From assembly GCA_009015555.1 (NCBI GenBank), contig GCA_009015555.1_3613.1: a DNA stretch of 64,000 bases; one strand, given 5' to 3'. Shown here in pieces: positions 10,853-61,923 of this stretch. A program made the translations under genes and the position numbers. Below the pieces are notes generated by a model that worked only from the letters and a program-made list of their open reading frames with translations, was not told the origin of the DNA and made no database searches. Numbering within the stretch: position 1 is the stretch's first letter; each line of letters starts with the position of its first letter. Source of the stretch: a phage.

Positions 10853-11229
10853 CAGTAAAGATCCTCGCTAAACAGTGTATCGTATGGCGCACCTTTTTTA
10901 CGCACCGTGTTGATCTGTCCTGCGTGAGTGGCAATGACCAGGGCATCTTGTCGGTTGTGATACTCTCCCCATTGGTCGATAAAACCCTGCTCTTCACCCG
11001 CTACAAAACGAGTAGAAATTTTATCTTCCAAGAGGTCAAGAACCTCAGCCATATCTTTGGAATAGTGACGAGACCCCGGAACTACCACAAAACCACCAGT
11101 CTTCAGTTCGAAGCGGTTGGCGGCACAAACAATCCGTCGCTGCAATTTGCGACCGTCCCACCAGTCGGCGATCTTATAACAAATTTCCGGGAGACCTTCT
11201 TTTACGGTATCTTCCATCAGTTCCTCCAA
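10852..11229 (-). CDS. hypothetical protein (125 aa)
   Basis: ORF only. Confidence 0.45.
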   Translation of the reverse strand: MEELMEDTVKEGLPEICYKIADWWDGRKLQRRIVCAANRFELKTGGFVVVPGSRHYSKDMAEVLDLLEDKISTRFVAGEEQGFIDQWGEYHNRQDALVIATHAGQINTVRKKGAPYDTLFSEDLY

Positions 11230-11429
11230 TATACGTTTTTGTCTTTTTTAATCATGCGGCTTACCTCTTTTGCCGACAAACGGTCATAACTTGCTCCGTT
11301 TTCCCGGTATGCGCCGCATGGGACCCATTCAGGGATAGAAAAGCTATAGTGCTGGTAGAAGATAGTACCTTTGGCAATTTCAATCTCCAGCCAAGGGAGA
11401 TGAACCTCGCGGATTTTGAAATATGTCAT
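11217..11429 (-). CDS. hypothetical protein (70 aa)
   Basis: ORF only. Confidence 0.38.
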   Translation of the reverse strand: MTYFKIREVHLPWLEIEIAKGTIFYQHYSFSIPEWVPCGAYRENGASYDRLSAKEVSRMIKKDKNVYWRN

Positions 11430-16782: not shown

Positions 16783-17077
16783 CAATATGCTCCAGAACCA
16801 GAAGGTGTTTGCACCGCTTGTTGTTTGCCCAGACCAGAAGGGCCATGTCCATCCATGCAACCTGATCCGGGTCTCCGGCCACGGTTAAGTGCATGTTGTC
16901 ACAGTTCTGCCTTACTTTCGTCACAGTGAAGTCAATATTGGCCCGGTTCATCCGTTCCTCAAGATACTCCAACTGGTCGTTCAGATCAATACTCCATTTG
17001 TAAAATCGCGGTTTTTCTTGTGCCCGGTAGATCTCTTCCATTCGATCAACCACACCCTCCGCAAAGCTCAGTGTCAT
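16775..17077 (-). CDS. hypothetical protein (~100 aa)
   Basis: ORF, start trimmed to MTLSFAEGV. Confidence 0.4.
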   Translation of the reverse strand: MTLSFAEGVVDRMEEIYRAQEKPRFYKWSIDLNDQLEYLEERMNRANIDFTVTKVRQNCDNMHLTVAGDPDQVAWMDMALLVWANNKRCKHLLVLEHIDG

Positions 17078-17292
17078 CCTACCCCCTTCATTCCCGCCCG
17101 GCACTCCGGGCAATACCAAACCCCGAGACCGGGGCATTCAGGATCTTCCACGTAATTATCAGGCTTATTCGATACAGTCACTGATTGACCGATCACCGCA
17201 CCCGGTATTTTGTAGAAACAGATATGCGGCCCAACACCATAGTGAGGGTATGAACCGTCTGCACAGTTACCACACATCGCGTTTCTTCCCAC
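17074..17292 (-). CDS. Cys-rich small protein
   Basis: CGNC...CPGLGVWYCPEC. Confidence 0.4.
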   Translation of the reverse strand: MGRNAMCGNCADGSYPHYGVGPHICFYKIPGAVIGQSVTVSNKPDNYVEDPECPGLGVWYCPECRAGMKGVG

Positions 17293-17494
17293 GAGGGTGC
17301 AGATCCATATCCACAGCCAAGAACGGATTCTTACGCGCCCAGCGCTCTTCTTTAGTCTCCAGCCCGTAGTTAAGATAGGACAACAACCAACGACCCAGCA
17401 CTATCGCCAACACAATGATTACGGCAAACACAACCAGATCCAATTCGCGTTGATTAAGACCGAAAGCCACAATATCATTCACACACTGTTTCAT
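17267..17494 (-). CDS. small membrane protein
   Basis: Hydrophobic segment LVVFAVIIVLAIVLGRWLL. Confidence 0.4.
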   Translation of the reverse strand: MKQCVNDIVAFGLNQRELDLVVFAVIIVLAIVLGRWLLSYLNYGLETKEERWARKNPFLAVDMDLHPRGKKRDVW

Positions 17495-17775
17495 CAGATC
17501 ATCTCCATCGTAATCAGTACATTGTCGAGGTCATCAGCGTTAAGCTGGAGTTCAGGCTTCATACTATCTTCCACACGGTGATAAATCAACCCCTTTTCCA
17601 CATATTTGATCATCACCTCGTAATATTTCCCCAACAGGGTGTCCCATCCACACTCGTAAACAGACACCATACAGACTTTCAGGCCAGCTTTTGCTGAGTG
17701 CCATGCCTCACGCACAGCTTCCAGATGGGCTAATTCCAGTTCATCAATTTTATTACGCTGCTTATTACTTAACAT
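17494..17775 (-). CDS. hypothetical protein (93 aa); first gene of leftward block
   Basis: ORF abutting AT-rich control region. Confidence 0.45.
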   Translation of the reverse strand: MLSNKQRNKIDELELAHLEAVREAWHSAKAGLKVCMVSVYECGWDTLLGKYYEVMIKYVEKGLIYHRVEDSMKPELQLNADDLDNVLITMEMI

Positions 17776-18139
17776 TCTATAACCCTCATACGGTTGTCTC
17801 GTTTCAATGTGTGCATTCTATGATCCAATGATCCTCTTGTCAATACTTTAAATTTTAAATTTTTCATGTAAGATCTATATAAAGATCCTAAAGATCAATA
17901 GGAATCTTCTATTGTTTTCTTGTTTTTAATAATTATTATGAATGTATATGAATAATAATTATAAGATCAATAATTTATGAGTGGAACGAATAAATTATAA
18001 GATTAATAAAACCGTAGCCCGGAGGGCGAGCGTAGCGAGGTTTATAGATTCTATTATTACTTCGTGTGCCTTTCAGGGCTACATGGTTGACAACCGATTT
18101 GATTAATGAAACACTGGGTAGGGTTTCAAAGGAGGGTAT
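17776..18139. promoter_or_regulatory. AT-rich divergent intergenic control region with clustered GATC and AAGATC(A/C) direct repeats; candidate promoter hub / replication origin
   Basis: Long A/T tracts, about six GATC sites within ~130 bp, repeated AAGATC motifs, ttgaca-like -35 near 18090; genes diverge on both sides. Confidence 0.5.
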
Positions 18140-18508
18140 GTGAAGGATTTTGTTGTTCCAGAGGGTTCTTTTGTAAGCCTCCCTACTAAGTGGGGCTTCG
18201 ACTTGCCTGCTGAAGACCTGAAGCGGATGTTCTTGTTACATTTCCGATTCAAGTATTTTGCAGAGCAAGCGTTTCAGAGTGGTGAAGACGTTAGGCGTTG
18301 TTACTATGAGTCACAGGAGACCATGTGTCGCCTGTTTGGTATGTCTGAAGCATCAAGGACGAAGGTTGGAAAGTTTCTCAAGCGAATGGAGGCATCGGGC
18401 CACATTTCCATCATACGTGAGAAAGTAATGCTGTACGGTTCAATGAAGCCACGGCACTACATTGTGGTCAATGACCCTGTGCTATTGGAAAGGTATGGTC
18501 TTTCTTAG
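18140..18508 (+). CDS. hypothetical protein, possible winged-helix DNA-binding (GTG start)
   Basis: GGAGGG RBS then GTG; first rightward gene. Confidence 0.45.
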   Translation: MKDFVVPEGSFVSLPTKWGFDLPAEDLKRMFLLHFRFKYFAEQAFQSGEDVRRCYYESQETMCRLFGMSEASRTKVGKFLKRMEASGHISIIREKVMLYGSMKPRHYIVVNDPVLLERYGLS

Positions 18509-18550
18509 ACTATCTGACTGAATCTTGATAAAATGGGGGCGGAGGAACTC

Positions 18551-19201
18551 ATGAACGAAATGCTTATGCTTGGGCAGGCCAAAGCTAAAGCTGGCCTGGA
18601 TATTGATTTTGAAGACGCCGAGATTGGCAGCACCACGATTGTGGACAAGAACGGACATCCTTTCACACTCGTTGGTACTATCGCGACTGGTGGTGGGGTA
18701 GTCGAAGACCCCGAGGTAGGGAAGTGCTTCTACTTCCCCGGTACGGGATACTTCGAAACCCCTATGGTAAAGGACCTTCAACTCGCTGGAGTACCTGTCA
18801 TGATCGAGGCGGTATTTAAGTGGGACGGTGCCGCAGGAGGGTCTATCTGGGAGACTGGGAACTACCCCAGTGGACGACCACCAACACCCGGCATTTGCCT
18901 TAGTGTTGGTCAATACCCTGCTACGTACATCCAGTATTTCATGATGTATACCAACGGGTCTTGGGGCCGTGGCCTACCTCCAGCTACAACCTTCACCGGG
19001 GAATGGGAGACTGTAACCTTCCAACGGTCAAATGATGGAACGGGACCAATGGTTGTTTATCGCGACGGTGCCGAGTTCTCCAGGGTTGCCTTGGGTCCAA
19101 GCCCGATCGGTAATGGAAGCAAGCTGTCGGTTGGCGGGTCGTACACATACGGTGCCTATTGGAAGGGACGCCTGAAAAGTCTTAAAATTACACCACTCTA
19201 A
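18551..19201 (+). CDS. hypothetical protein with possible concanavalin/LamG-like fold
   Basis: GGAGGA RBS before ATG at 18551; C-terminal WKGRLKSLKI reminiscent of LamG domain ends; tentative. Confidence 0.45.
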   Translation: MNEMLMLGQAKAKAGLDIDFEDAEIGSTTIVDKNGHPFTLVGTIATGGGVVEDPEVGKCFYFPGTGYFETPMVKDLQLAGVPVMIEAVFKWDGAAGGSIWETGNYPSGRPPTPGICLSVGQYPATYIQYFMMYTNGSWGRGLPPATTFTGEWETVTFQRSNDGTGPMVVYRDGAEFSRVALGPSPIGNGSKLSVGGSYTYGAYWKGRLKSLKITPL

Positions 19202-19203
19202 CA

Positions 19204-19234
19204 AAAGGCCCTTGACGGGGCCTTTTTCTTTTTG
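19204..19234 (+). terminator. Rho-independent terminator
   Basis: aggcccttgacggggcct hairpin followed by ttttctttttg. Confidence 0.55.
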
Positions 19235-19269
19235 TAAGATCGCTTTACTTTAACTGAGAGGAGAGAGAT

Positions 19270-20160
19270 ATGATTCGTGCATATTTAGGCGGAAGTCAGT
19301 TGGACATCGAGTTCAGCACATTTGCCGGGGGCGAGAGAAACGTCCTCATCAAGGGTTTCCAATGGCCCAGTCCGTTCAATGCGGATCTGAAAGAGAAGAT
19401 GCCAGAAGGTAAAGACCTTGTTGTCTACGCCCATGTTGACAGTTCAGATGCCATCATGGACCTGCTGCTGTTTACCGACGCATTCAACCGCATGGGTCGA
19501 GGCACAGGCAACCAGGTGAAGAAGGTCTGTTATGTGCCATACATCCCGTATGCCCGTCAAGACCGAGTGATGGTTCCTGGAGAACCGCTGTCGTCGGCAG
19601 TGTTTGGAACACTTATCAACCTGTGTGGATTTGACCGTATCATTGTTGATGACCCGCACTCAGATGTGTCTCCGTCACACATCAAGAACGTTGCCATTTT
19701 CGAACAATATGAACTGGCCTTGGATATTCTTGGCCCGGGCTTCTTCGACGATGCCGTTATCGTAGCTCCGGACGCCGGGGCAATCAAGAAGGTCACGAAG
19801 TTGGCTCAGAAGGTCAACCACCGTGAAATCGGGGTTGGGACCAAGCATCGTGACCTTATGACCAATAACATCACTGACACGACTTATGCCGGGCCGGATG
19901 TTAATGGTAAGCGTGTCATCATGGTTGATGACATTTGCGACGGAGGTCGTACATTTATCGAGCTTGGTAAGGTTCTCCGTGCCAATGGTGCGAAAGAGGT
20001 TGTTCTGTACACCACGCACGGGATTTATTCCTACGGCGCGGATGTGTTTAAGGACGTTATTGATGAGGTTTACTCCGCCTATCCGTGGATGAAGAACCTG
20101 GAAGGCCGAAACGAAAATAATATTTTCAAATCTGTTGACAAGATGGTTGAGTTCAAGTAA
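19270..20160 (+). CDS. PRPP synthetase (Prs)-family phosphoribosyl-pyrophosphokinase; candidate ADP-ribose pyrophosphate synthetase (Adps) of a NARP1-type pathway
   Basis: Type I PRTase/Prs motif VIMVDDICDGGRTF and Prs-like N-terminal half (PYARQDR); strong RBS GAGGAGAGAGAT-ATG. Confidence 0.75.
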   Translation: MIRAYLGGSQLDIEFSTFAGGERNVLIKGFQWPSPFNADLKEKMPEGKDLVVYAHVDSSDAIMDLLLFTDAFNRMGRGTGNQVKKVCYVPYIPYARQDRVMVPGEPLSSAVFGTLINLCGFDRIIVDDPHSDVSPSHIKNVAIFEQYELALDILGPGFFDDAVIVAPDAGAIKKVTKLAQKVNHREIGVGTKHRDLMTNNITDTTYAGPDVNGKRVIMVDDICDGGRTFIELGKVLRANGAKEVVLYTTHGIYSYGADVFKDVIDEVYSAYPWMKNLEGRNENNIFKSVDKMVEFK

Positions 20161-20211
20161 TATTCACAACGTTCCGGGGCACATTGCCCCAATTTAACTG
20201 AGGAGATTTAT

Positions 20212-22002
20212 ATGTTACATAACGACCTGCCTATCCTGTTTGCTGACTGGTACAAACCGAGCCATATTTCCATGTACAGCAAACAGTCTGAGATCGTACA
20301 AGACAACATGACCCCACGCTCAAGCAAACACTTTCAGCACTTTTCTGACAGTGACCAGCGCGTCATGTCTGCTGGCCTGCAAGGCTTTATTAAGTGGTTC
20401 CTGATTGAACACTTCAACCGTGAGTTCTTCGGTCGTCCGAAGGAAGAAGTTATCGGGGAGTTCAAAGAGATCTGTGACCTGGCGATCGGCCCAGACATGG
20501 TTGAAACGTGGGGCTTCGAAAAGCTGCATGACCTGGGCTATCTGCCTGTTGAAATCCGCGCCCTGCCGGAAGGTACTCTTTCTCCGGTACAAGTGCCTCT
20601 GTTCACAATTCAGAACACGCACCCGGACTTCTACTGGCTTCCTAACTACCTGGAGTCAGTGATCTCCTCTGAAAACTGGAAAACCGTAACTACGGCAACC
20701 ATTTTCTGGCAGTATCGTAAGCTGGCTGAACTGTGGGCGCAGAAAACCTGCGACAACAACCTGCACGTCCCGTTCCAGATTCATTGCTTCGCTTATCGCG
20801 GCCAGGCTGGCACTCACGATGCGGCCCAGTCTGAACTGGGACAACTGATGAACTCTCAGGGCACCGACACCATCCCGGCGATCCTGTATGCAAACCGTTA
20901 TTACGGTATGAAAGGCAAGTTCGTATCCGGCTCCATCCCGGCATCCGAGCACAGCGTTGCAACAACGAACATCGGGTTCATCATCGGACGCCTCCGTTCT
21001 GAGCATCCGGAAATGTCGCTGGATGACCTGCGTTTCCACGCAGAAGTCGAGTTCCTGCGCCGATACATCACTGAAATCTTCCCGAAAGGTTTCGTGTCTT
21101 ATGTCGGCGACAGTTATGACTGGTTCCGCCTGATCACTCAGGGTGTTCGTATCCTGAAAGACGAAATCATGGCCCGTGATGGTCGTGTGGTATTCCGCCC
21201 GGATTCCGGCGTACCGGAAGACATCATCTGCGGCACACTGGACTGGCGTAAGATTGAAGACCTCGACACGGCAGGTACTCTGGAACGCGCTGCCAATTGG
21301 GCACTGGAAAGTGCCGAAGATGAAGTTCGTGAGAACACCCCGCACGGTGAATGCGGTGATGAATCCGTTGAACGTTACTTCCTGTTCGATGGCGATCTGT
21401 ACCTGATGAAGGGTGAGATTGACTGGAACCGTCACGACAAAACGTATTACTACATCGACGGTCGCCGTGTTCTGTCTTACGAAAAGGCAGAACTCACTGA
21501 TGAGCAGAAAGGTTCTGTTGAACTGCTGTACGATGTGTTCGGTGGCGACCTGAACTCCAAAGGCTATCGTACTCTGGACACCCACGTCGGCCTGATTTAC
21601 GGTGACTCCATCACCGTTGCTCGCGCCAAAGAGATCTTCGAGCGCCTGGAAGCAAAAGGCTTTGCATCGAACAACGTTGTGTTCGGTGTCGGTTCCTTCA
21701 CCACCCAGTTCAACACTCGTGATTCTCTGGGTCAGGCAGTCAAGGCGACAGGCGCGGTTATTGACGGTCAGCAGATCATGGTCGTCAAAGAGCCTAAGAC
21801 CGACCTCGGCAAGAAGTCTGCTCAGGGCTTCCTGAAGGTTGTTCGTGGTGAAGACGGTGAACTGAAGCTGGTTGATAACCTCCAACTGGAGCAAGTCAAC
21901 GATACCGACAATGAACTGCGTGTGGTTTTCCGTGACGGCGTTCTGCTGGTTGACGAAACGCTGACTGAAATCCGTGAGCGTGTCACAGCAAACCTGAAAT
22001 AA
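20212..22002 (+). CDS. Nicotinamide phosphoribosyltransferase (NAMPT/NadV) family protein; candidate nicotinamide ADPR transferase (Namat)
   Basis: 596-aa NAMPT-family translation immediately downstream of the Prs-like gene; RBS GAGGAG; no NMN adenylyltransferase seen in window. Confidence 0.8.
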   Translation: MLHNDLPILFADWYKPSHISMYSKQSEIVQDNMTPRSSKHFQHFSDSDQRVMSAGLQGFIKWFLIEHFNREFFGRPKEEVIGEFKEICDLAIGPDMVETWGFEKLHDLGYLPVEIRALPEGTLSPVQVPLFTIQNTHPDFYWLPNYLESVISSENWKTVTTATIFWQYRKLAELWAQKTCDNNLHVPFQIHCFAYRGQAGTHDAAQSELGQLMNSQGTDTIPAILYANRYYGMKGKFVSGSIPASEHSVATTNIGFIIGRLRSEHPEMSLDDLRFHAEVEFLRRYITEIFPKGFVSYVGDSYDWFRLITQGVRILKDEIMARDGRVVFRPDSGVPEDIICGTLDWRKIEDLDTAGTLERAANWALESAEDEVRENTPHGECGDESVERYFLFDGDLYLMKGEIDWNRHDKTYYYIDGRRVLSYEKAELTDEQKGSVELLYDVFGGDLNSKGYRTLDTHVGLIYGDSITVARAKEIFERLEAKGFASNNVVFGVGSFTTQFNTRDSLGQAVKATGAVIDGQQIMVVKEPKTDLGKKSAQGFLKVVRGEDGELKLVDNLQLEQVNDTDNELRVVFRDGVLLVDETLTEIRERVTANLK

Positions 22003-22006
22003 TTTC

Positions 22007-22029
22007 AGCCGCCCTTCGGGGCGGTTTTT
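22007..22029 (+). terminator. Rho-independent terminator
   Basis: agccgcccttcggggcggttttt immediately after NAMPT-like stop. Confidence 0.7.
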
Positions 22030-22047
22030 AACTATCCGGAGGATGAA

Positions 22048-22206
22048 ATGAAACTGAATGAATCTCAGTATCTGGCGGCAAGAAAGGCGTTTGTGGAAAA
22101 TTCCGTATTCGATAATATCCGTATGTGGGTGGAAGATGGGCAAATGTCAGAGGATGAGCTTCGGGTGTTGATTGGAGAGATCTTCGCTCCCGTGGAGGTA
22201 GAATGA
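22048..22206 (+). CDS. small hypothetical protein (52 aa)
   Basis: ATG with GGAGGATGAA RBS; not in ORF track (<60 aa). Confidence 0.3.
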   Translation: MKLNESQYLAARKAFVENSVFDNIRMWVEDGQMSEDELRVLIGEIFAPVEVE

Positions 22207-60726: not shown

Positions 60727-61923
60727 ATGTTTCCTTTTGCTATTATTCCACCGTTTGTTCTTTCAGGCAAGGAAAAAATCAAGCAGTTTTCGGTTACGTC
60801 TTACGACAGTATGGTCCTGACTGATAAGGGGAACCTGTATGTTACAGGATTCAACCGGGTGGGTGAGCTTGGTGTTGGGGACACAACTAACCGAAATAAC
60901 CAATGGGTTTTGGTAATGCAGGACGTAAACTGGATTGCAAGCAACCGTGAGAAGCTGTGGGCAATTAAGAACGACGGTTCCATTTACACCCCGGATCTTC
61001 GGTCATCCAGTACAACTGCATATACTTGGCAAATCGACACGGTAGCACCTGGAAGTATTGGGGATTTGTCTGGGGATAATATCAAGGAGATTTACAGCGA
61101 CACAGAGAGCGTATATATCCTCAAAAAGGATGGTTCACTGTGGTATCTGGGAAATAACTCTAAAGGCCAAGCTGGAAACGGGGGAACTTCCTTAACCACA
61201 CGCTTTGTGAAGGTTTCAGATGGTGTGGTATCTTGGTCATCCAGTGGACCCACTGTTGTTTTCGTGAAAACAGACGGATACTTCTGGGGCTGCGGATCAA
61301 ATTCCCGAAATATCATTTCCTCTGCTGGCAGCAGTATCACAACCCCTACCCGGATGTTTAGCACCACCCACGCTGACGGAGGTGTTGTAACAGATTACAC
61401 GCTGGCCTCTGACCAAGCGTTTTTGATCAGATATAGTAATGGTAAATATCGTACCAAAGGTCTCAATATCGGACAACTTCCTTCAGGGGATGCAAGTCCA
61501 TACAATACCCTTACGGACGTTCCTGACGGATACACCCCCGGTGATGGAACGGAGCCTCTGGTAAGCAAAACAGGAGGGGTGTCGGCCTCTGGAACTTGGC
61601 CTAACTATAGTGGTCTTTTCTTCTACCATACGGGAGGGAAATTCATAGTCACTGGTCAAGCAAGCGGGAGAATTTCCGGGACCAGCCAAACCAGCGGTAC
61701 ACTCTCAAACTGGACCAATGTCGATGCGGCAAGTGACGAGATCCCATCTATCAAGGGAATGACCTTCGGACTGGGTTGGGTTGCTGCCTACAACGATACG
61801 CAGATTCTGTACTGGGGGTATACGGGAAACTCCTCTGCATATCCGGTTGTGGGATACCTAATGCCCGGACCTTCAAGGCTTGAATATGTGGCACGTTTTG
61901 CAACCCCGCCGATCGAGGCATAA
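60727..61923 (+). CDS. RCC1-like repeat (beta-propeller) protein
   Basis: Recurrent G.N..GQ.G.G / LG.G units (GFNRVGELGVGD, GNNSKGQAGNGG, GLNIGQLPSG). Confidence 0.5.
   Translation: MFPFAIIPPFVLSGKEKIKQFSVTSYDSMVLTDKGNLYVTGFNRVGELGVGDTTNRNNQWVLVMQDVNWIASNREKLWAIKNDGSIYTPDLRSSSTTAYTWQIDTVAPGSIGDLSGDNIKEIYSDTESVYILKKDGSLWYLGNNSKGQAGNGGTSLTTRFVKVSDGVVSWSSSGPTVVFVKTDGYFWGCGSNSRNIISSAGSSITTPTRMFSTTHADGGVVTDYTLASDQAFLIRYSNGKYRTKGLNIGQLPSGDASPYNTLTDVPDGYTPGDGTEPLVSKTGGVSASGTWPNYSGLFFYHTGGKFIVTGQASGRISGTSQTSGTLSNWTNVDAASDEIPSIKGMTFGLGWVAAYNDTQILYWGYTGNSSAYPVVGYLMPGPSRLEYVARFATPPIEA

Follow-up and report, generated by a model that had tools for sequence, protein, structure and literature searches.

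Two neighbouring genes beside the NAD+ module of a CR3-like certrevirus, coding for a winged-helix protein and an N-terminally tagged LamG-fold protein

The 64,000-nucleotide stretch of phage DNA considered here (contig GCA_009015555.1_3613.1 of GenBank assembly GCA_009015555.1, hereafter the window) matches Cronobacter phage CR3 at about 99% identity; in its segment 17700-19300 the figure is 99.3% for CR3 and 99.1% for PBES 02 (Certrevirus, Vequintavirinae). Two rightward open reading frames (ORFs) in this segment match the annotated CR3 genes CR3_gp254 and CR3_gp255, by whose short names they are called below. As stated in the original prediction, which was made from the sequence alone, they lie to the right of an AT-rich region, directly beside a divergent intergenic stretch of 29-38% G+C at which the strand bias flips; small leftward genes and a DNA ligase gene are situated on its other side. 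The two genes are followed by a Prs-like and a NAMPT-like gene, recognised by Pfam and PHROG matches (Table 1). NARP1, the NAD+ reconstitution pathway, comprises Adps and Namat (10.1101/2024.02.11.579819), and judging from its genes the Prs-like/NAMPT-like pair has an architecture of the NARP1 type, with Adps followed by Namat. The original prediction assigned gp254 and gp255 to one operon with this pair and saw in the second gene, for a lectin-like protein, a possible accessory counter-defence or host-takeover factor.

The start of gp255 is, by the criterion of a ribosome-binding site, the ATG at 18551, which is preceded by GGAGGA, while the longer ORF beginning at 18533 has no such site; the protein thus has 216 amino acids and not the 217 first ascribed to it. 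Its match to Laminin_G_3 (PF13385) scores 29.6 bits (E 9e-7), above the curated cut-off of 27.6, and a profile of 75 sequences of its family matches neurexin LNS/LamG domains in the PDB with E 2e-4. The AlphaFold2 model (predicted local distance difference test, pLDDT, 93.8; predicted template modelling score 0.89) is all-beta with 15 strands, and Foldseek relates it to lectin-like jellyrolls with E ~1e-7, a probability of 1.00 and a template modelling (TM) score of ~0.6, its partners being the clostridial neurotoxin Hc-N, the carbohydrate-binding-like domain 4 of arabinanase AbnA, and TSPN/LamG domains. The lectin-like fold expected from the sequence is therefore borne out by Pfam, AlphaFold2 and Foldseek, but it is not limited to the C-terminus: the jellyroll takes up residues 16-216 as one domain, and gp255 is modelled as a single complete two-sheet LamG/ConA-like jellyroll. 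Pfam, NCBIfam and PADLOC gave for gp255 no nucleotide-handling domain and none for ADP-ribose (ADPR) or NAD metabolites (Macro, RyR-type, phosphatase).

Relatives of gp255 occur in 50 phage records and those of gp254 in 74, the latter essentially all Vequintavirinae-like (tblastn). A word-indexed protein search gave only seven relatives for each protein, and exhaustive and profile searches were needed. The exhaustive search of 1.84 billion representative proteins yielded 85 relatives of gp255, of which 84 are stand-alone and no longer than 231 amino acids, which defines a compact phage-type family. PHROG 6011, labelled 'virion structural protein', matches gp255 in full length (E 4.4e-73; residues 1-216 against positions 4-220 of the 221 in the profile); this label traces to jumbo-phage proteomics, and by such matches gp255 appears to belong to a known class, the phage virion-associated LamG_3 lectins. 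Its closest relatives in GenBank (62-69% identical) are all from Cronobacter phages of the genus Seunavirus, while the paralogue of CR3 itself, gp194, is only 33% identical, suggesting exchange between phages that share a host. The 64-kb window holds no second copy of gp255, gp194 lying outside it.

The sole low-confidence part of the gp255 model is formed by residues 1-10, with pLDDT 55 (residues 11-20 average 81, and all later blocks are at 91 or above), and it begins with a short peptide conserved in the family, called here the tag. Two types of tag were distinguished among the 75 family sequences. Type 1, present in 52 of them and in gp255, reads M-x-E-x-[LM]-[LM] and is followed by a Lys-rich linker; the glutamate at position 3 is found in 51 of the 52, leucine or methionine at position 5 in 46 and at position 6 in 41. 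Type 2, M-[LIF]-P-F-[AP]-R-[ML]-[IL]-x-Y-G-N, is found in 15 sequences. The leucine codons of the tag vary among relatives, so the conservation operates at the protein level. With its start corrected, CR3 gp194 begins with MNEMLL, as compared with MNEMLM in gp255, at the low overall identity given above, and type 1 tags are also borne by CR3 gp063 (Kelch/DUF6923-like), EspYZU15 ORF163 (RCC1-like) and 4MG gp170 (another LamG_3 protein). In the papers on CBB, phAPEC6 and CB7 and in the jumbo-phage comparative papers no mention of the tag was found.

Homologues of gp255 and proteins bearing such tags have been detected in virions by mass spectrometry (MS). In the jumbo phage CBB, the PHROG 6011 family member CBB_549, 36% identical to gp255, was identified in this way with 6 peptides and 50.7% coverage, as were its tag-sharing LamG neighbours CBB_548, CBB_551 and CBB_553 (PMC5259590), of which only CBB_553 is BLAST-similar to CBB_549. 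All seven products of CBB_548-554 (four LamG and three Kelch proteins) start with MLPF-x-R/I, that is, with a type 2 tag, and five of the seven are MS-verified in virions (PMC5259590); the RCC1-like GAP32_001, for which MS detection has been reported, has MLPFSRIIQYGN at its N-terminus. The only virion proteome in the genus Certrevirus is that of CB7 (PMC7344957), and three of its MS structural proteins carry tags: CB7_55 (MQEMMIV, 4 peptides), encoded among replication genes; the LamG_3-like CB7_251 (MNELLLIG, if translation is taken to begin 30 codons further upstream), whose gene lies downstream of the NAD+ genes; and CB7_37 (MIPFAII, 4 peptides), a structural protein of unknown function whose gene immediately follows that of the tail fibre. 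The distribution of the homologues of CB7_55 and CB7_251 puzzled the authors of the proteome (PMC7344957). The ordinary structural proteins CB7_24-36 have no such tags. In the window, the positional counterpart of CB7_37 (60727-61923, + strand), situated directly after a 1074-amino-acid tail-fibre gene and a terminator, codes for a 398-amino-acid RCC1-like beta-propeller starting with the type 2 tag MFPFAII, while the bodies of the two proteins are ~20% identical and barely alignable.

The database starts of CR3_gp194 (L012 21419-22069, - strand) and CB7_251 (L013 11248-11892, + strand) look too far downstream; when extended by 15 and 30 codons, respectively, both gain, independently of ribosome-binding sites, tag-bearing N-termini (MNEMLLIS... 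and MNELLLIG...) that match full-length family members. CR3_gp063 (L011 14437-15390, - strand), a Kelch/DUF6923-like beta-propeller of 317 amino acids with the type 1 tag MIELLMAGGKKG, is encoded among DNA-polymerase and replication genes, and CB7_55 beside the CB7 DNA polymerase gene, the two not being exactly syntenic.

The correlation of the tags with the MS data suggests that they have a role in virion incorporation. It may tentatively be proposed, at somewhat short of an even chance, that short N-terminal peptides of the forms M-x-E-x-L-L...K-K and M-L-P-F-x-R-L-x-x-Y-G-N constitute a fold-independent virion-incorporation signal of large enterobacterial myoviruses, namely Vequintavirinae and Rak2-like jumbo phages, loading interchangeable binding domains. 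LamG, Kelch, RCC1 and other domains would then be placed onto or into the particle, with gp255 as one swappable cargo, and the scattered tagged 'non-structural' genes would form a hidden, rapidly exchanging host-interaction layer consisting of adhesins or of ejected anti-defence binders.

The internal proteins IPI-III of T4 carry a capsid-targeting sequence of about 10 residues, and the gp255 group recalls their design, namely a short conserved N-terminal peptide on otherwise unrelated, rapidly varying particle proteins, encoded outside the structural module and differing between close relatives. It differs from them in the absence of sequence similarity and in its cargo, composed of beta-sandwich and beta-propeller domains and not of small basic or acidic proteins. 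By this analogy gp255 would be carried within the particle and enter the cell together with the ejected DNA, binding and blocking a host defence or another host protein early in infection, its N-terminal peptide being the capsid-targeting signal and its variable beta-rich domain the cargo. Such a role, which would rescue the counter-defence idea, agrees with the virion association of tagged proteins (PMC5259590, PMC7344957) and with the fact that LamG, Kelch and RCC1 folds bind proteins as much as glycans, but it is judged unlikely: no recognisable protease cleavage motif follows the tag, the E in type 2 tags is not conserved, and in CR3-like phages and CB7 a type-2-tagged gene immediately follows that of the long tail fibre, a position which points to the tail and not to the head. 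LamG_3 lectin domains are known from tail fibres and from other parts of jumbo-phage virions (PMC7824862), and this tie of phage LamG_3 domains to fibres also speaks against ejection.

The original prediction regarded the context of gp255 as early and non-structural, a reading supported neither by the virion data on homologues and tagged proteins described above nor by the DNA in front of the gene. A spacer of 42 nucleotides separates gp254 from gp255; two diverged contigs derived from the Sequence Read Archive (L018 and L019) have kept it although both flanking proteins diverge, and in the window as well as in L018 and L019 it carries TTG(A/T)TAAAAT 16 nucleotides before the gp255 ATG. The motif TGNTAAAAT contained in it has nine copies in the window, all of them on the + strand, as compared with about one copy per strand in shuffled sequences. 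Six of the eight other copies lie 20-35 nucleotides upstream of start codons of the virion module, several of them right after terminators; the genes that follow these six copies are gp003 (in the prohead-protease position), gp012, gp013 (neck/tail-completion), gp021, gp026 (baseplate) and a gene at ~27132, and the sites before the homologues of CB7_24 and CB7_29 are conserved in CB7. In rV5, the type phage of Vequintavirinae, Kropinski et al. found by MEME the sequence TggTAaAAtA, which TGNTAAAAT matches, upstream of late genes and drew a comparison with the T4 late promoter (PMC3606486). TGNTAAAAT is likely to be the late promoter of the phage studied here, and the presence of a late-type motif upstream of gp255 argues against the 'early' label of this gene. 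The published early promoter of certreviruses, TGTTGAC-N19-TATAAT, is absent upstream of both gp254 and gp255.

The assignment of gp255 to one operon with the NAD+ genes is disfavoured by what lies between them. Although gp255 and Adps/Namat are on the same strand, an intrinsic terminator is located directly 3' of the gp255 stop codon, ahead of the Prs-like gene; it consists of a 10-bp G+C-rich stem followed by TTTTTCTTTTT, it folds with -15.8 kcal/mol (z -3.0), better than any of 200 shuffled sequences. The terminator is conserved in PcCB7V, phiTE, L018 and L019 and is annotated as such in phiTE, and the promoter-like site embedded in it (Table 1) is conserved in PcCB7V, phiTE and L019. In PcCB7V and phiTE, which have no gp255, the same terminator/promoter element comes directly after the gp254 homologue, indicating that gp255 is a cassette, bounded by the gp254 stop codon and this element. 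CR8, KaOmega, PcCB7V, phiTE, CB7, CR9, F1M1E and others lack the cassette, and gp255 adjoins Adps/Namat only in CR3, PBES 02 and the two related contigs L018 and L019; a recurrent association of the two across phages was not found in the genomes compared. The contigs have a LamG gene in the same slot, its product being 65-66% identical to that of the window (Adps 76-87%, Namat 87-90%), so the arrangement is old within a sub-lineage and not a one-off; a recent one-off insertion of gp255 into CR3 was considered and dropped, as two diverged contigs share the arrangement.

A location outside the structural module is in fact usual for the gp255 family, contrary to the view that it is an unusual context for a lectin-like fold. 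In the Seunavirus phages 4MG and EspYZU15, and in the case of CR3 gp194, the family copy stands beside nucleotidyltransferase and tRNA-nucleotidyltransferase genes, while the jumbo phage CBB has four LamG copies in an array with Kelch proteins.

Another reading is that gp255 works in the cytoplasm as an accessory to the NAD+ module, or else as a counter-defence or host-takeover factor of a different kind; read-through would then lead to its co-expression with Adps and Namat, and its ligand would be an ADPR-derived molecule or a defence protein. The order winged helix-turn-helix (wHTH)-LamG-Adps-Namat has persisted in three lineages, with LamG proteins of only 65-70% identity, the LamG slot is taken in other Vequintavirinae by different accessory genes, among them that of a HAD-family protein in Kashira, and NARP1 operons elsewhere comprise accessory genes, the published ones coding for a Macro-domain phosphatase (Adpp) and a RyR-domain glycosidase (RyDEP). 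Such a function is very unlikely, however, for a gene that is separated from Adps by a conserved terminator and a promoter-like site and has a late-type promoter motif of its own, and whose product has neither a nucleotide-handling domain nor a PADLOC match. Moreover, most certreviruses with NARP1 lack gp255, and most members of its family are not near NAD+ genes. A published survey covered the genes up to two positions away from 859 NARP1 loci; Macro domains are among the commonest accessories in it, and LamG is mentioned nowhere in the paper. A counter-defence or host-takeover role of gp255 is disfavoured, though it might act in counter-defence, for example, as an ejected virion protein.

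The slot between the winged-helix and Prs-like genes is a variable-gene hotspot, empty in most certreviruses and occupied by LamG in CR3-like phages. In PVP-SE1 it contains gp98 (L008 3833-4393), coding for a wHTH+T5orf172 protein, and in Kashira (L010 3863-4372) a gene for a HAD_SAK_2 protein, possibly analogous to the ADPR-1P phosphatase associated with NARP1. A Macro-domain phosphatase was not found in the corresponding slot of these Vequintavirinae (PVP-SE1 and Kashira).

The first gene of the pair, gp254, starts with GTG, as originally predicted, and both this start and the AGGAGG ribosome-binding site are conserved in an alignment with five other certreviruses. The AlphaFold2 model of its product, built from 47 relatives (pLDDT 91.9), has a long N-terminal helix, a helix-turn-helix (H59-65, H70-85) and a beta-hairpin wing (strands 89-98/101-110). 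Its best 50 fold matches in the PDB all contain a winged helix and are nearly all DNA binders, among them TFIIE, MarR/MepR, ArsR, the replication terminator protein (RTP), DnaD-N and ORC/Cdc6, the exceptions being a few plant O-methyltransferases, and the model thus supports the winged-helix fold class. The earlier suggestion of a winged helix holds at this level, that of the fold, but not at the level of a Pfam family: all 47 family members have only sub-threshold wHTH matches, the best of them to HTH_5 (E 1.7e-5), gp254 itself matches TrmB with E 0.059, and the profile search of the PDB gave E of at least 0.17. With no Pfam threshold reached, gp254 is placed in no specific regulator family (MarR, ArsR, TrmB, HTH_36 and others), and neither gp254 nor gp255 has a match in NCBIfam or PADLOC. 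Hence gp254 shares the helix-turn-helix and beta-hairpin wing topology with MarR/ArsR/TrmB-like regulators and with winged-helix replication proteins (DnaD-N, RTP), but, unlike the named winged-helix families, it forms a phage-only family of its own, PHROG 8453 (function unknown), restricted to Vequintavirinae-like phages.

In PVP-SE1, W70, Kashira, PcCB7V, phiTE, CB7, CR9 and F1M1E the gp254 homologue is always the first gene to the right of the divergent region, and in W70 it keeps this position although no NAD+ genes follow. From this conserved position gp254 appears to be linked to the control region and not to the NAD+ genes. The region itself comprises ~235 bp of non-coding DNA almost 100% identical in six certreviruses infecting Cronobacter, Enterobacter and Pectobacterium, while the flanking genes diverge; the identity of gp254 falls to 51-57% in CR9 and F1M1E beside a near-invariant control region. 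It contains a strong leftward sigma70-like promoter, TTGACA-17-TAGAAT, at 17843-17815 (11 of 12 positions matching), a cluster of AAGATC/GATC sites, two copies of AATTATAAGAT(C/T)AATAA spaced by 36 nucleotides and an invariant G+C-rich island (ACCGTAGCCCGGAGGGCGAGCGTAGCGAGG). In the same six certreviruses the positions of the -35 hexamer and of the (A/C)A(C/A)ACT hexamer in front of gp254 are fixed, while the spacer sequence between them varies, and this site is the predicted promoter of gp254 (Table 1). The invariant region could consist of stacked promoters and operators, or be an origin or a small RNA; an Rfam scan of 17000-20000 gave only chance-level matches.

Near-invariant AT-rich DNA with a GATC cluster and repeated 17-mers, situated beside a switch of strand bias and with DNA ligase and other DNA-metabolism genes on its other side, would also suit a replication origin, with gp254 as an origin-binding or replication-organising winged-helix protein, and the weak fold and profile matches to the N-terminal domain of DnaD, the replication terminator protein and the ORC/Cdc6 winged helix fit this as well. 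It is rather unlikely, since gp254 matches regulators (MarR, ArsR, TrmB, TFIIE) at least as well, divergent transcription alone explains the skew switch, and no iterons matching a known initiator were identified.

The 36-nucleotide spacing of the AATTATAAGAT copies led to consideration of a pseudo-ToxI locus like that of phiTE, and this candidate was rejected, there being no ToxI-like sequence in the window. In CB7 the pseudo-ToxI locus known from phiTE lies elsewhere, just upstream of CB7_251 (L013 ~11130-11235), and comprises about 1.5 copies of a 36-nucleotide ToxI-like repeat (AGGTGATTTGCTACCTTTAAGTGCAGCTAGAAATT) fused to a tRNA-like 3' end.

The best-supported explanation, which has roughly an even chance of being correct, is that gp254 and gp255 are two functionally separate genes, the first coding for a winged-helix regulator and the second for a late, tagged, virion-borne adhesin. 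gp254 would be made from the sigma70-like promoter that borders the invariant divergent region on the right, and its product would most likely act back on this region, regulating transcription of the divergent early units. gp255 would be made late, together with the structural proteins, from its own TGNTAAAAT element and ribosome-binding site; its product would enter the virion by docking of the N-terminal tag on a structural partner of the phage and would then serve as an accessory adhesin for a glycan or a protein of the host surface.

Several points weigh against this explanation. The assignment of TGNTAAAAT to late transcription derives from a published in-silico proposal and from positional enrichment; a few copies of the motif are also found outside the structural regions of CR3, and the other tagged genes (gp194, gp063 and that at 60727) have none directly upstream. 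The evidence for virion location comes from homologues of 33-36% identity in a different phage group and from tag-sharing non-homologues, and the detection of CB7_251 in the virion consisted of a single peptide. Terminators can be leaky, and the gene order kept in three lineages, with LamG proteins ~65% identical, would also suit a functional link to the NAD+ genes. Finally, the fold matches of gp254 are weak, with E of 5e-3 to 0.1 and TM scores of ~0.4.

Among known proteins gp255 is nearest to the LamG_3 proteins of Rak2-like jumbo phages (CBB_549, GAP32_531, GAP32_002; PHROG 6011), which belong to the same family (33-36% identity to CBB_549) and share with it a length of ~215-225 amino acids, a single jellyroll and a short conserved N-terminal peptide. 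The jumbo-phage members have an MLPF-type tag and have been verified in virions by MS, and their genes form tandem arrays with those of Kelch proteins, whereas gp255 has an M-x-E-x-L-L tag, is a single extra copy beside NAD+ genes and is known from sequence. The copies located by nucleotidyltransferase genes (CR3 gp194, Seunavirus 4MG gp182 and EspYZU15 ORF154) have the tag and the fold of gp255, ORF154 being 69% identical to it and gp194 and gp182 only ~33%; they differ in their genomic slot and in the lack of a late-type motif directly upstream. Lectin-type receptor-binding and decoration domains of phages (LamG_3, ConA-fold domains on fibres, T4 Hoc-type) expose a beta-sandwich on the virion for weak adhesion to host surface polymers (PMC7824862), as is proposed for gp255. 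They are usually parts of large fibre or baseplate proteins or of capsid-binding decoration proteins, while gp255 is a free 23-kDa protein whose only candidate for attachment is the N-terminal peptide of 6-15 residues. With the NARP1 accessory genes (Macro-domain Adpp, RyDEP) gp255 has in common that it is a variable same-strand gene at a NARP1 locus; unlike them, it has no ADPR-handling fold, is separated from Adps by a terminator, carries a late-type motif and belongs to a family otherwise unlinked to NARP1.

The lectin-fold gene beside the NARP1-type module is thus probably not a part of that counter-defence pathway, which removes a tempting false lead and is relevant to the mining of NARP1 neighbourhoods for accessory enzymes. 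The tag, shared across folds and the one unexpected element, gives a handle on the small LamG, Kelch and RCC1 proteins encoded outside structural modules, which several proteomes found in virions but left unplaced. If it is indeed an incorporation signal, it would explain how these phages diversify their host-interaction domains, provide a simple rule for predicting hidden virion proteins and serve as a tag by which therapeutic phages could be made to display foreign domains. The winged-helix gene and the invariant divergent region, in turn, mark a likely early control switch of Certrevirus genomes.

Table 1. Positions in the window of the genes and predicted signals discussed in the text
Feature	Position	Strand	Remarks
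Divergent control region	17812..18046	.	AT-rich (G+C 29-38%), nearly invariant in a six-phage alignment
gp254 promoter-like site	18087..18115	+	-35 TTGACA at 18087-18092, 17-nucleotide spacer, weak -10 AACACT at 18110-18115
gp254 homologue	18140..18508	+	122-amino-acid protein, predicted winged helix; GTG start; ribosome-binding site AGGAGG at 18130-18135
Late-type promoter motif, TTGATAAAAT	18525..18534	+	extended -10-like; immediately upstream of gp255
TGNTAAAAT copies	18526, 27106, 30993, 40774, 41374, 43422, 48358, 51961, 57189	+
gp255 homologue	18551..19201	+	216-amino-acid protein, predicted LamG/ConA-like jellyroll; ribosome-binding site GGAGGA at 18541-18546
gp255 tag and linker	18551..18595	+	type 1 tag MNEMLM (amino acids 1-6) and Lys/Gly-rich linker (amino acids 7-15), ahead of the jellyroll
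Intrinsic terminator	19203..19237	+	ends the gp254-gp255 pair; stem 19203-19226, then T-run
Sigma70-like promoter-like site	19212..19240	+	TTGACG-17-TAAGAT; inside the terminator, upstream of the Prs-like gene
Prs-like and NAMPT-like genes	19270..22002	+	Prs-like 19270-20160, NAMPT-like 20212-22002; Pfam and PHROG matches

Downstream of the NAMPT-like gene the window lacks the 720-nucleotide gene gp258 of CR3, annotated as 'putative DNA methylase 2', and has in its place (22029-22203, corresponding to 142308-143035 in CR3) ~175 nucleotides with an ORF of 52 amino acids; the phage from which the window comes is therefore not identical to CR3.

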